Shown here: piece by piece, positions 51,294 to 59,944 of the stretch
Numbering within the stretch: the stretch's first letter is position 1
Layout of the letters: each line of letters opens with the position of its first letter
Assembly (NCBI RefSeq): GCF_003018255.1
Contig: NZ_CP027440.1
DNA: 64,000 nt
Source of the DNA: Escherichia coli
GTDB lineage: Bacteria; Pseudomonadota; Gammaproteobacteria; Enterobacterales; Enterobacteriaceae
Strand: one strand, 5' to 3'
The notes under the pieces: model-generated
What the model saw: the letters and a program-made list of their open reading frames with translations, nothing else
Database searches by the model: none
What the model was told of the DNA's origin: nothing
Translations under genes and position numbers: made by a program

Positions 51294-51578
51294 TTAAACA
51301 GGTAAAAAAGAGACCAACCTTAAACCATCCAAATCTACCGGAGTACGCCTGTTTACCCCAAATGTCTGGAACTCAAATCCCGATTCCGTATTCGTAGCCC
51401 ATGCCATCACCACATTGCCTTCTTCCGCCAGTCCAGATATTTGTTCCCAGATCATTTCACGGACTCTTGCGGATACATCACCTACATACACCCCTGCACG
51501 TACCTCCAACAACCAGATGGCTAATCTGCCTCGTAAGCGCGAAGGTACATTTTCAGTGACCACGACCAACATACTCAT
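51294..51578 (-). CDS. cas2: CRISPR-associated endoribonuclease Cas2 (type I-E)
   Basis: ORF track frame 129 aa; start placed at [12 protein letters not shown] (94 aa). Confidence 0.95.
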
Positions 51579-51579
51579 C

Positions 51580-52497
51580 TCAGCTACTCCGATGTCCGGC
51601 ATCTCCCAGAGAAACGGGAAGTGGAATAGCAACAGGCTGCGCATCTTCAGGTGGGGCCGGCGGCTGTATTTCCCCAGCAGCAAGCACGTCCTCTATAAGC
51701 GGAATCAATTTGACTAATGTTTTACTACTGCGAAAAATATCCCTGCACGCCAAACGGACTTCCCGGTCCGGCTCACCAGGAATACGACGCGCTATCTCAA
51801 AAGCTTTCGGTACAACAGTGTCAAATTTAATGATGTCCGCGATATCGTAAACAAAGGAAAGAGGCTTTCCTGTATGCACAAACCCAATAGCTGGTGCATA
51901 ACCAGCTGCAAGTATCGCCGCTTCAGTTACGCCATATAAACAAGAAGTTGCAGCGCTAATGCATTGGTTGACCGTATCGCCCTTTTCCCAGTCTTTCGGA
52001 TCGTAACGACGTCCATTCCATTTCACCCCGTATTGCTTCGCCAGAAGTACATAGGTTGCTCGCACACGACTTCCTTCTATACCTCTGAGTTGCTCTACGG
52101 AGCGCCGGGCAGGCGCAGGTTCTCCAAACCGAAGTTCAAACATTTTACGTACGACCTTCAGACGCAAATCTTCATCCAGAGCAAGTTTTGCCTGATAGAG
52201 CAGCTTATCTGAACGCGCACCACCAGGCTGACCAGAAGCATAAACACGAACGCCCGCTTCCCCCACCCATACCAATAATGTTCCAACTTGCGCAGCCAGG
52301 CGTACAGCTGCATGCGAAACCCGTGTACCAGGTTCCAACATGATGCAGGCAACCGAGCCAACAGGAATATGAGTGCGGATCCCTGTCTTGTCGATAAGTA
52401 CAAACGCGCCATCTATTACATCGATCTGCCCATATTGCAGAAAGATCATGGAGACGCGATCTTTGAGTGGAATGGGATTAAGGGGAAGCCAGGTCAT
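51580..52497 (-). CDS. cas1: CRISPR-associated integrase Cas1 (type I-E)
   Basis: ORF track frame 310 aa; start placed at [14 protein letters not shown] (305 aa). Confidence 0.95.
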
Positions 52498-56863: not shown

Positions 56864-57277
56864 TTGTTCTCCTTCATATGCTCCGACATTTCTCCTGCAT
56901 TTCTATGCGTCGGCACACTTCCGTTATCGGTAAAAACAAAGAAAAAATACGGCGTAATTAATTCAATAATCACATTCACTGCAAAAATATATTCATTGGT
57001 TTAATACAATTAACCTATACATATATTAAGATGTGTTGAATTGTTTAAAGACAATAATGCATGCATTTCAAATCTGCAAGTTATTCGTTTTATTATCAAA
57101 GAAATTTTTAGTTATAATAATTACCATAAATTTTATTACATAAAATATTCATACTGTGAATATAAAATCTCATACCGGGAAATTAAAAGAAGATGTACAT
57201 TGTGCACTTTCCCTACTTAAGTAGGGATAAACCGTTATTGGTCTTGTTATCGTCATTGATACCAATCATTCCCGAAG
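56864..57277 (-). promoter_or_regulatory. AT-rich cas3-cse1 intergenic region expected to carry the Cascade operon promoter (Pcas) and H-NS/LeuO control sites
   Basis: 414 bp strongly AT-rich non-coding stretch directly upstream of cse1; regulatory assignment is from established E. coli knowledge, exact promoter positions not determined here. Confidence 0.6.
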
Positions 57278-59944
57278 TTATTTGGGATTTGCAGGGATGA
57301 CTCTGGTCATCCCTTCATCCCGAGTGTAGGTAATAACAATATTATTACCCTGCCAGATCCATCCATCCTGATTCTGTTTCCCTTCCAGCCAAAGTAACCC
57401 ATCTTCATCTACTACTTCAGAAAAATTACGTTTCCAGGTGAAGGGTACATTGACGCGATTAAGTGCTAACGCCTCATACTGCTGTTCATGACTTAGGTCC
57501 TCGTAGACCTGGCCATCGAGCAGTTGTTTACCTGAAGACGTTTGTAAATAAGGCAATAATGGCAGGCTCATTTCCCCATCCCTCGTTACCGCAAGAATTG
57601 TTTCATCGTTATCCTGCAAGCTATATTCTTCAGCCCACTGCAGAACCTTGCGAGCCTTGAACCTCTTTTCACACTCAGCGCTTTCAAACTTATCCATGCC
57701 TTTGATGACCCATTCTGGCTCATCCATTTCAGCATCATCGTAAATGCTATCCAGCCATTGCCGGTAGGCATCGGGGAAAAATAAGGATGCTCCATTAAGT
57801 TCCTCAATATGTTGCTGCGTCCGCCACATGACTCTAACGTTGCTATAAATATGCTCATGTCGTCCGTAACCTTCGCCATCAGGCAGCAAAACGGTGGCAA
57901 GAGGAACCTCAAAACCAGCGGGACGATATTTGCGATGATGGCGATGTAAACGGCCCAATCGTTGGAAAAGTAAATCTGCGGGGCAATGCTGAGTAATTAA
58001 CCAATCAAAATCAACGTCGAGTGATTGTTCCACGACCTGGGTGGCGACAAGTATCCGTCCAACATTTCGCTTCCCATTTTTGCCGAAATTGCTAATAACT
58101 CGATTCTCTTTTTCACGACGATCGTTCAGCGTAAAGCGCGCATGAAACAAATCTATATCTACTTGCGTGTTATTTAGTTCCTTTAACCGTTGGTGGCATA
58201 GCTGTGCAACATCAACCAAATTGCAGATAAGACAGACTTGTGCACCCGCATTTGCCGCTACGATCATTCGCTCTAACATCCTAAGGTCAGGTAACATGTC
58301 AGCTAAATAAATAGGTTCTGGCCGAATCGAAAAGCGGGGCGGGAGTTGTTCTGAATGAGCTAACAGATCAAAACGTTGTGCACCATTCACACCTCGCCAG
58401 TTAATGAGTGGATATGCGGAGTTATTTTCCTCTGGATCTGTATGCAGACCATAAGTATCCAGAAGTTTCTGTTTTTGTTTCATTGGTAGAGTTGCGGAAA
58501 GAAGAATAACACTCCCCCCCACATCAGCCTGAGCCTTGAGCACAGCCTCCAGCAAGCCGTTCATATACGTGTCGTAAGCATGAACTTCATCAACAATTAA
58601 AACACTTCGACCAATTCCCAAACCACGGATAAAGCGGTGTTTAACTGGCAATACCGATATCAACACCTGATCAATCGTGCAAACGCCGATTTGCCCAAGA
58701 AACACTTTCTTATTGCTTTGTGACAACCACTGACAACACTGAACCCATGCTTCTTCTTGCCCCTGCTCAGTAAATGCGCGTGATTTTATTGATTGAAAAA
58801 GGTGGTTAAAACGTGAATTACCATGAGCAAGAATAAGATTTGGGGAGGTAAATAAACGGCTCGCGTTCGCTTCCATTCTGCTGAGCATTGCATTTGCAGT
58901 AGCTTGTGTAGGGAGGGCAAAAATAACACTATCCGCAAGTTGTTGGTCAATAAGTTTCCAGGCATAGGCCAGCGCAGTTTCAGTTTTACCTGAACCCGTA
59001 GGTGCCTCTATTACCGTCAGCCCGGGCGCTACTGGAAGAGCATCAACTAACACTTGTAATTGTCTGGGTTGATAGCCATTGTCCAGTAGAGCATGAACAC
59101 CTTCATAACATCGCTTATTTGATACAAGGCCGCTCAACTCCAATACCCGGCTCGCATCCTGCTGTCGGTCCTGGAAATACGTTCTTAGAGCATTTATGTT
59201 GGAAGGTGCATCCTCTTTAAACAGAAAGGTATTCGTTGTAGTCCAGGAGCCTAACCAGTCAGCAAGCGAGCAAAAACCTGCTAACAGTGATGAACAATCA
59301 GGTGGTATATCGTTTATAGATAACCCGGCTGGCGTTAAAAATAATGCTTCGAGTACAGATATCCACTCCTCACGAGCCTGTTTATCTTGCGCAGCATAAG
59401 ATGCCAGAGAAGCTGGCATTTCCCAACGCGACTTATCTTGATCCTGGGAATGTAATATAAAACCATGATGTCCTGTAACAGCCTCTACCCATGGAAACCA
59501 GGACTCATAAGGATGAGGAGCGGCATCAAAAAAACTGAAAAAATCCCCGGGAGATTGCTCTGAAAGTGAATCCTGGTTAAACCAATACAGACCGGCTGCA
59601 CCATGATTAAATTTACGGCACATTTGTGTTGATGGACCATTAAGTGATGGCGTTGCAGGATTTAATTTCAGCCAACTTTCTGCTGATTTATATTGGAATC
59701 GTATATCAAACTTTCCGATATCATGAAGGGCAATGAAAAATAACAGCCAGGCTTTCACCTTCTGTTTTGATAGCATTTCATTTCGGCAAAAAGCATTTTG
59801 TAGTACGACTGATTGATCCCACCAGCAATCTGCAACAGCTGCAACATCCAGGCAATGATAAATCAACAGATGAATATCATTTCCTTTCGTCAGGCTTTTT
59901 GAGGATTTCCCCCAGTAATGACATATATATTTAAAAGGTTCCAT
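57278..59944 (-). CDS. cas3: Cas3 HD-nuclease/helicase (type I-E)
   Basis: ORF track 888 aa; HD motif (ALHDIGKFD), Walker A EAPTGSGKTE, DEVH box (LIVDEVHAYD); SD GGGAGG 7 nt upstream of ATG. Confidence 0.96.
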   Translation of the reverse strand: MEPFKYICHYWGKSSKSLTKGNDIHLLIYHCLDVAAVADCWWDQSVVLQNAFCRNEMLSKQKVKAWLLFFIALHDIGKFDIRFQYKSAESWLKLNPATPSLNGPSTQMCRKFNHGAAGLYWFNQDSLSEQSPGDFFSFFDAAPHPYESWFPWVEAVTGHHGFILHSQDQDKSRWEMPASLASYAAQDKQAREEWISVLEALFLTPAGLSINDIPPDCSSLLAGFCSLADWLGSWTTTNTFLFKEDAPSNINALRTYFQDRQQDASRVLELSGLVSNKRCYEGVHALLDNGYQPRQLQVLVDALPVAPGLTVIEAPTGSGKTETALAYAWKLIDQQLADSVIFALPTQATANAMLSRMEANASRLFTSPNLILAHGNSRFNHLFQSIKSRAFTEQGQEEAWVQCCQWLSQSNKKVFLGQIGVCTIDQVLISVLPVKHRFIRGLGIGRSVLIVDEVHAYDTYMNGLLEAVLKAQADVGGSVILLSATLPMKQKQKLLDTYGLHTDPEENNSAYPLINWRGVNGAQRFDLLAHSEQLPPRFSIRPEPIYLADMLPDLRMLERMIVAANAGAQVCLICNLVDVAQLCHQRLKELNNTQVDIDLFHARFTLNDRREKENRVISNFGKNGKRNVGRILVATQVVEQSLDVDFDWLITQHCPADLLFQRLGRLHRHHRKYRPAGFEVPLATVLLPDGEGYGRHEHIYSNVRVMWRTQQHIEELNGASLFFPDAYRQWLDSIYDDAEMDEPEWVIKGMDKFESAECEKRFKARKVLQWAEEYSLQDNDETILAVTRDGEMSLPLLPYLQTSSGKQLLDGQVYEDLSHEQQYEALALNRVNVPFTWKRNFSEVVDEDGLLWLEGKQNQDGWIWQGNNIVITYTRDEGMTRVIPANPK

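Follow-up and report, generated by a model that had tools for sequence, protein, structure and literature searches.

Escherichia coli carries two very different sets of type I-E CRISPR-Cas genes at the iap-cysH site. The majority type, E1, has a GC content of 53.5%; the minority type, E2, which includes K-12, has one of 45.6% and lies furthest from the genome in the published codon-usage clustering. A recent replacement of E1 by E2 has been proposed, and the low GC content and foreign origin of E2 were both published in 2014 (Almendros et al. 2014, PMC3903273). Here we examine one 64-kb window of E. coli DNA (contig NZ_CP027440.1), in which a block of cas genes at 51294-59944 lies between these two flanking genes; all coordinates and strands given are window positions. 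The system is already known, both as K-12-type I-E and as the low-GC cas-E2 variant, and the practical value of the present work is one of annotation: this strain has the minority K-12-type (E2) module.

H-NS keeps both the casABCDE12 operon and the array repressed in K-12, and LeuO relieves this repression by binding two sites around the start of Pcas; CRP and LrhA also act at Pcas, and Cas3 is limiting in hns mutants (PMC4782391, PMC6698644, PMC12968389). LrhA levels vary among E. coli strains and alter Pcas activity (PMC12968389). The K-12 system is described as transcriptionally silent, and this silence as a long-standing puzzle (PMC12248084). About 19% of bacterial I-E loci have a mini-array separating cas3 from cas8e, and one has been predicted in E. 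coli, with transcription opposite to cas3 and a target, flanked by an AAG protospacer-adjacent motif (PAM), that overlaps the H-NS site by Pcas (Shmakov et al. 2023). The Salmonella I-E mini-array (CreR) represses its casA promoter via E. coli Cascade, and is relieved by excess CRISPR RNA (crRNA) or anti-CRISPR (Liu et al.).

We read the block as a K-12-like type I-E CRISPR-Cas module of the cas-E2 variant, complete and situated between iap and cysH with its leader and a 13-spacer array. Taken as a whole, with the origin, default silence and mini-array layer discussed below, we give this explanation a probability of about 0.88. The original prediction, made from the letters of the window, had described an intact and AT-rich I-E operon, consistent with horizontal origin; it omitted the mini-array, and it omitted that the low GC content is variant-specific and published.

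A complete cas-E2 module between iap and cysH

Eight consecutive minus-strand cas genes fill the block according to the list of open reading frames (ORFs), and both of its ends are exact: the cas2 stop codon finishes at 51294, and the cas3 ATG is at 59944. Each gene has an ATG start, a stop codon and zero internal stops. The protein lengths match those of K-12 (Cas2 94, Cas1 305, CasE 199, CasD 224, CasC 363, CasB 160, CasA 502 and Cas3 888 amino acids, aa), and all eight proteins score above the curated cut-offs of type I-E NCBIfam models, with Cas3 also matching TIGR01596 and TIGR01587. Positions 51000-60400 of the window match the E. coli JNE112863 chromosome at 100% identity, and the RefSeq annotation of that chromosome gives cas2e, cas1e, cas6e, cas5e, cas7e, casB, casA and cas3 at the matching positions. 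Some listed ORFs are longer (cas1 310 aa, cas2 129 aa, casD 226 aa); these are upstream extensions. The RefSeq starts in the identical JNE112863 DNA are the ATGs used here.

The catalytic motifs can be observed directly. Cas3 combines an N-terminal HD nuclease with a superfamily 2 (SF2) helicase, and has H74-D75, the Walker A motif APTGSGKT (K320), DEVH at 452-455 and SAT at 483; Cas1 has E141, H208 and D221, and CasE has H20. The signature subunits Cse1 (Cas8e) and Cse2 (Cas11) are encoded together with Cas7e, Cas5e and Cas6e in one operon of contiguous or overlapping genes, and adaptation is represented by Cas1e-Cas2e and an adjoining array of 29-nt repeats and 32-33-nt spacers behind a leader. 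The original prediction of eight full-length open frames with intact Cas3 HD, Walker A and DEVH motifs is borne out, with the residues now located. A pseudogene or decay reading was considered and rejected, since the cas frames are intact and the ratio of nonsynonymous to synonymous divergence (dN/dS, below) is well under 1.

Assignment to E2 is equally direct. The cas3E2-R primer site has an exact match at 59867-59889, in the 5' sequence of cas3, while the cas3E1-R primer has no match in the window at up to three mismatches. The cas genes cluster with those of K-12, at 96-99.5% nucleotide identity. The E1 locus of the O157 strain AR-0430, also type I-E and also between iap and cysH, has an unchanged set and order of eight genes and nearly the same CRISPR repeat, and its Cas1 and Cas2 are 85-86% identical to those of the window; but its CasA, CasC, CasD, CasE and Cas3 are just 21-34% identical (aa) to their counterparts, and its CasB gives no significant alignment to the window CasB (E = 2.4). 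Since the strain carries the E2 module, the K-12 literature on Cascade, Cas3, H-NS, LeuO and LrhA can be carried over to it directly; for an E1 strain it could not.

Table 1. Positions of the CRISPR-Cas features and adjoining intergenic elements in the 64-kb window
Feature	Position	Strand	Evidence or remark
CRISPR2.1 array: 14 repeats (29 nt), 13 spacers (32-33 nt)	50366..51188	-	repeat/spacer analysis
CRISPR leader	51189..51293	-	identical to K-12 over 104 nt compared (cas2 stop to repeat 1)
cas2e, 94 aa	51294..51578	-	TIGR01873 138 bits
cas1e, 305 aa	51580..52497	-	TIGR03638 375 bits
casE / cas6e, pre-crRNA endonuclease, 199 aa	52513..53112	-	TIGR01907 268 bits
casD / cas5e, 224 aa	53099..53773	-	TIGR01868 282 bits; start as RefSeq
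casC / cas7e, 363 aa	53776..54867	-	TIGR01869 423 bits
casB / cse2 / cas11, 160 aa	54880..55362	-	TIGR02548; 8-nt overlap with casA
casA / cse1 / cas8e, Cascade large subunit, 502 aa	55355..56863	-	NF007247 equivalog 904 bits
cas3-casA intergenic region, 414 nt, 29.7% GC	56864..57277	-	407/414 (98.3%) identical to the K-12 region with Pcas, H-NS site, LeuO/LrhA sites
psiS target: AAG PAM (57078-57080) and partial protospacer	57078..57098	+	218 nt upstream of casA ATG
degenerate mini-CRISPR: psiR1 57206-57234, psiS 57235-57265, psiR2 57266-57294	57206..57294	+	repeat pattern and folding
cas3, HD nuclease fused to SF2 helicase, 888 aa	57278..59944	-	NF007248 equivalog 1606 bits
cysH-cas3 intergenic region	59945..60302	-	sok-like element 60024-60180; cysH terminator-like site 60254-60285; E1 homology resumes at 60036

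The cysH side of the module holds a sok-like element (minus strand; Rfam RF01794, 104 bits), near which we found no Hok ORF. K-12 shares this remnant and annotates sokX on the strand opposite to the Rfam sok match; the E1 locus of O157 has an intact Hok/Gef gene adjoining cysH.

Array, selection and expected expression

Beyond the array proper, one more spacer and a degenerate terminal repeat reach to ~50305. The array of JNE112863 (L001, 2624-3689) has 11 of the 13 window spacers, including the three that are leader-proximal. The oldest spacer, S13 (region 50427-50394), has 32/32 matches to P1/P7/SJ46-type phage-plasmids, where the preceding G agrees as well, and to many E. coli plasmids, and the newest, S1 (51159-51128), matches a Dhillonvirus tape-measure gene at 28/32, with an AGG PAM. 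The S1 mismatches fall at spacer positions 2, 5, 8 and 11, that is, at every third base, a pattern resembling divergence of the phage gene at third codon positions. Judged by these matches, the spacers S13 and S1 derive from real phages. No self-targeting spacers were found in the window at up to five mismatches.

The K-12 MG1655 locus (cas3, casABCDE, cas1, cas2, CRISPR-I; b2754-b2761) occupies the same site with the same gene order, lengths and overlaps. Per-gene nucleotide identity ranges from 96.1% (cas3) to 99.5% (casE, casC), and amino acid identity is 96.6% for Cas3 and 98.0% for CasA; the two loci differ by 65 amino acid substitutions in total, 30 of them in Cas3, three in CasB and one in CasE. 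The spacer set is wholly different, with none of the window's 13 spacers shared. For the pooled cas genes dS is 0.077, dN 0.011 and dN/dS 0.145, as against 0.01-0.04 for cysD, iap and cysH; the cas genes are therefore under purifying selection, though of a relaxed kind.

The differences from K-12 form a mosaic: casE-casB and most of casA differ by 0-1%, while cas3, cas1, cas2 and the flanks differ by 3-7% (segments compared, 52100-56100 vs 57300-59300 and 51294-52100). In the central segment dS is 0 for casB and 0.008 for casC (range 0 to 0.015 over casE-casB), and a third E2 allele, that of strain 201609, has the same conserved centre. Near-zero synonymous change is not explained by constraint, and it suggests that the Cascade segment was recently exchanged by recombination among E2 alleles. 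The same exchange behaviour has been described for E1 (Almendros et al., PMC3903273).

The DNA that in K-12 holds Pcas and the H-NS and LeuO sites is present here as a region, judged by its identity over 407 of 414 nt, with the individual sites unplaced. Given this identity and the identical leader, H-NS silencing with LeuO activation is expected as the default, by homology only; we infer both the expression state and the binding of H-NS and LeuO in this way. Probably, then, the system is silenced by H-NS, activated by LeuO and LrhA, and nearly silent in standard culture. The E1 intergenic region is just 97 nt long at 45% GC, compared with 414 nt at 30% GC here, and the long AT-rich regulatory architecture therefore belongs to E2. 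This region also contains a perfect 19-bp palindrome, ATATTCACAGTATGAATAT (7-5-7, at 57145-57163), identical in K-12. We considered it as the LeuO core site of the cas promoter, whose verbal description it fits, but it is not assigned.

If the locus works as K-12's does, a leader promoter would yield pre-crRNA that CasE would cut at the repeat hairpins. Cascade (CasA1-B2-C6-D1-E1 with crRNA) would bind protospacers flanked by AAG, ATG, AGG or GAG, Cas3 would be recruited and would degrade the target with its HD nuclease and helicase, and Cas1-Cas2 would insert new spacers at the leader end. The AT-rich cas3-casA region would be bound and silenced by H-NS and activated by LeuO and LrhA.

Several observations weigh against this account. 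The cas3-casA region carries seven substitutions relative to K-12, at -399, -383, -345, -265, -242, -234 and -44 from the casA ATG, and hns, leuO and lrhA lie outside the window. A consensus promoter scan of 51150-60400 returned 10 sites vs 18.1 in shuffles, and was not used to place Pcas or anti-Pcas; the placement of the psiS target in the promoter rests on the description by Shmakov et al. 2023. The cas dN/dS is 4-12 times that of the flanking cys and iap genes, a sign of relaxed constraint. In P7 the triplet next to the S13 protospacer is CTG, which is no canonical PAM, and the window and JNE112863 arrays differ solely by internal spacer losses on both sides, with no new spacers at the leader end. 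The array comparison argues against recent adaptation activity, and is weak evidence for a quiet system.

One may object that the operon, intact as it is, is an evolutionary relic, permanently silent in the lineage, drifting to decay and conferring no immunity. The elevated dN/dS fits this objection but is still well below 1. IS1 insertions occur in casA of related genomes, while identical or near-identical copies exist in independent complete genomes and here all eight frames and every checked catalytic residue are intact. The array, with its internal deletions alone and three leader-proximal spacers common to both strains, and the silence ascribed to the K-12 system (PMC12248084) also favour a relic; against it, leader-proximal S1 resembles a coliphage gene and has the proficient PAM AGG, and the regulatory mini-array and its target are maintained, co-varying across genera (below). 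On balance we consider the relic reading unlikely.

Less probable still is that the system is expressed in this lineage, with K-12 behaviour changed by substitutions in the cas3-casA region or by regulator content. Of the seven substitutions, psiS contains two and its target one, and another is at -44; the reported differences in LrhA level between strains would allow altered Pcas activity (PMC12968389). That at -44, however, is the single difference from K-12 in the casA-proximal 233 nt; the region is as AT-rich as in K-12, the leaders of the two do not differ, and nothing in the array points to recent acquisition. With the target substitution psiS gains a pair (14 vs 13 in K-12), and any effect of it would strengthen repression. 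We regard expression in this lineage as improbable.

JNE112863 is almost identical across the window, and most genes match it at 100%, with patches of lower identity at 36531-38551 and 42180-42941, where hadC and hadB (hydroxyarylic acid decarboxylase) are 97.8-99.0% and surE 98.7% identical; cysN is 99.0% identical. These patches are local recombination in and around the variable mutS-rpoS region. The cysH gene (60303-61037) has copies of at least 99% identity in 79 of 5425 complete E. coli genomes, the other sampled matches being at most 97.3% identical; given this rarity, the strain is of an uncommon lineage, or its cysH flank has recombined.

Base composition and origin of the module

The cas block has 44.5% GC, while cysDNC has 53.6%, cysHIJ 55.5% and the remainder of the window 53.7%; its gene mean, 46.0%, is likewise close to the ~45.6% of E2, where the E1 module of O157 has 51.5%. 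GC at third codon positions (GC3) is 0.35-0.45 in the cas genes, with a mean of 0.40 as against 0.58 in the 51 other genes of the window (Mann-Whitney p = 3.6e-9). Codon adaptation, by an index built leave-one-out on the window's own non-cas genes, is 0.51 for the cas genes vs 0.68 for the others (p = 6.3e-9), and with Sharp-Li weights it is 0.21 vs 0.35, so that the two indices agree on direction. The GC minimum of the locus, 27-30%, is in the cas3-casA intergenic region. The original prediction had called the block AT-richer than the neighbouring cys genes and proposed a windowed comparison of GC and codon usage; run here, that comparison puts the block clearly below cysDNC and cysHIJ in GC, GC3 and codon adaptation alike. 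Neither a flank-like profile nor a frameshift, named there as the findings that would speak against it, was found in the sequence. The module is compositionally foreign.

Two other genes are AT-richer than their neighbours: pphB (29540-30196; 42.5% GC, GC3 0.44) and iap (49247-50284; 48.4% GC, GC3 0.445). The cas block is therefore not the sole compositionally atypical DNA in the window.

The comparison with E1 carries the matter beyond composition, and the suggestion of horizontal origin gains support from the dissimilar module at the same site and from sharp breakpoints, which can be observed directly. Flank homology between O157 and the window (94-97%) breaks off within the distal repeats at ~50577; it picks up again at 60036, a point 92 nt upstream of cas3. 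The exchanged unit thus runs from cas3 to cas2 and includes the leader and most of the array. There is no tRNA in the 64-kb window, where sok is the sole Rfam hit at the gathering threshold, and no integrase or transposase in the matching RefSeq annotation of JNE112863. We therefore reject an integrase-borne genomic island: the module lacks a flanking tRNA and mobility genes and sits between conserved flanks, which fits replacement by recombination between those flanks. Most likely, the E2 module entered E. coli by homologous replacement of an older E1 module, without a mobile-element integrase.

At least 80% of the block is present in 1115 of 5426 complete E. coli genomes (about one fifth). 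The nearest CasA relatives outside Escherichia are those of Citrobacter amalonaticus (61%) and of Erwinia, Pantoea and Edaphovirga (50-54%), followed at 50-52% by those of metagenome-assembled genomes (MAGs) of Desulfuromonadaceae, Desulfobulbaceae and Deltaproteobacteria. Among the 27 CasA-relative loci fetched (L008-L034) there is no obvious donor of ~45% GC.

That the low GC content instead reflects local mutation bias or selection (for instance for H-NS binding or weak expression) on an anciently resident operon would suit the AT-richness of adjacent iap and of pphB and the lack of flanking integrase, transposase or tRNA, but it is very improbable given that E1, in the identical chromosomal position and with identical functions, has 51.5% GC, that the E1 and E2 Cascade and Cas3 proteins are merely 21-34% identical with flank homology breaking sharply, that the closest CasA proteins outside Escherichia (50-61%) are scattered over Citrobacter, Erwinia/Pantoea and Desulfobacterota MAGs, and that published codon-usage clustering sets E2 apart from the genome (PMC3903273).

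A degenerate mini-CRISPR between cas3 and casA

The cas3-casA region contains a degenerate mini-CRISPR, antisense to the cas genes, whose anatomy can be observed directly. The first repeat-like unit, psiR1, is ACTTTCCCTACTTAAGTAGGGATAAACCG (57206-57234, plus strand), which lies just downstream of the cas3 stop; the final 11 nt of the true repeat survive in it, the 8-nt crRNA handle among them, and its hairpin is kept through two compensatory pair changes. Sixty nt further along, psiR2 is TCATTCCCGAAGTTATTTGGGATTTGCAG (57266-57294, plus strand), which runs into the stop codon of cas3. Across the 64-kb window, TTCCC-N10-GGGAT is confined to the 14 true repeats and to psiR1 and psiR2, with 0.17 chance matches expected, and the true repeat, psiR1 and psiR2 fold alike: ....(((((((....))))))).......

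The pseudo-spacer between them, psiS (31 nt), has one PAM-plus-seed match in the window, AAG followed by TTATTCGTTTTATTATC. Here 14 of 15 counted positions pair, over 17 nt, with mismatches at spacer positions 6, 12 and 18 (flipped-out) and 9; no AAG site in the window gives as high a score with any of 500 shuffled psiS sequences. In K-12 a C/T difference at 57097 costs one pair (13 vs 14). The mini-CRISPR is also present in K-12 and in strain 201609 and is absent from the E1 locus of O157; as far as these loci show, it is E2-specific in E. coli.

We looked for the same arrangement in the 27 fetched loci encoding CasA relatives. In the first scan a crude ORF rule gave no upstream ORF end in 13 of the 25 reported loci, and no absence of a mini-array can be inferred for those. 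An antisense repeat-like hairpin with a handle is found in the cas3-casA region of Citrobacter amalonaticus, Pantoea, Edaphovirga, a Thiotrichaceae MAG and Methylobacter. In all five, the best or joint-best psiS match locus-wide is an AAG-flanked site in the same intergenic region on the same strand, although the sequences themselves wholly differ between loci. Pairing is strongest in Citrobacter amalonaticus and Methylobacter (14/15 counted positions each) and Edaphovirga (13/15), where 0/500 shuffles reach the observed score; it is weaker in the Thiotrichaceae MAG (11/15; 10/500 shuffles) and weak in Pantoea (10/15; 30/500). This covariation of guide and target, which takes in at least three other genera and spans Enterobacterales and Methylococcales, argues for mini-array function.

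Antisense (anti-Pcas) transcription is known in K-12. Its product here would be an RNA transcribed antisense from the cas3-casA region, likely a further control layer, and CasE processing of psiR1 after G57226 would leave the AUAAACCG handle. The resulting crRNA-like RNA could load Cascade and bind the partial AAG-flanked site upstream of casA, producing autorepression without cleavage. The psiS target also overlaps plus-strand promoter-like hexamers, so that the mini-array may regulate itself as well. We put forward tentatively, at somewhat less than even odds, that the mini-CRISPR is a functional product of anti-Pcas transcription, a CreR-type RNA that would load Cascade, bind 57078-57098, and autorepress casABCDE12 and possibly its own promoter. 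If so, crRNA load or anti-CRISPRs would influence how strongly the 'silent' K-12-type system is expressed, in addition to H-NS.

The mini-array is not new, having already been predicted (Shmakov et al. 2023), and we found no experiment on the E. coli mini-array in the literature searched. It is nevertheless the one point of research value in this locus, as a testable extra layer of control on a system whose silence is puzzling, and the cross-genus covariation of pseudo-spacer and target makes it better worth pursuing in the best genetic model at hand.

In its anatomy the element agrees with CreR and with the mini-arrays of Shmakov et al. Two degenerate repeats surround a pseudo-spacer in the cas3-cas8e intergenic region, antisense to cas3; psiR1 keeps a hairpin and the nucleotides of the 8-nt 5' handle; and the seed-proximal end of psiS partially matches a site with an AAG PAM upstream of casA, where the effector operon has its regulatory region, and every sixth position is mismatched. 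Function has been demonstrated for two elements, that of Salmonella and an I-F1 one of P. aeruginosa, whereas the E. coli element is known from sequence and prediction.

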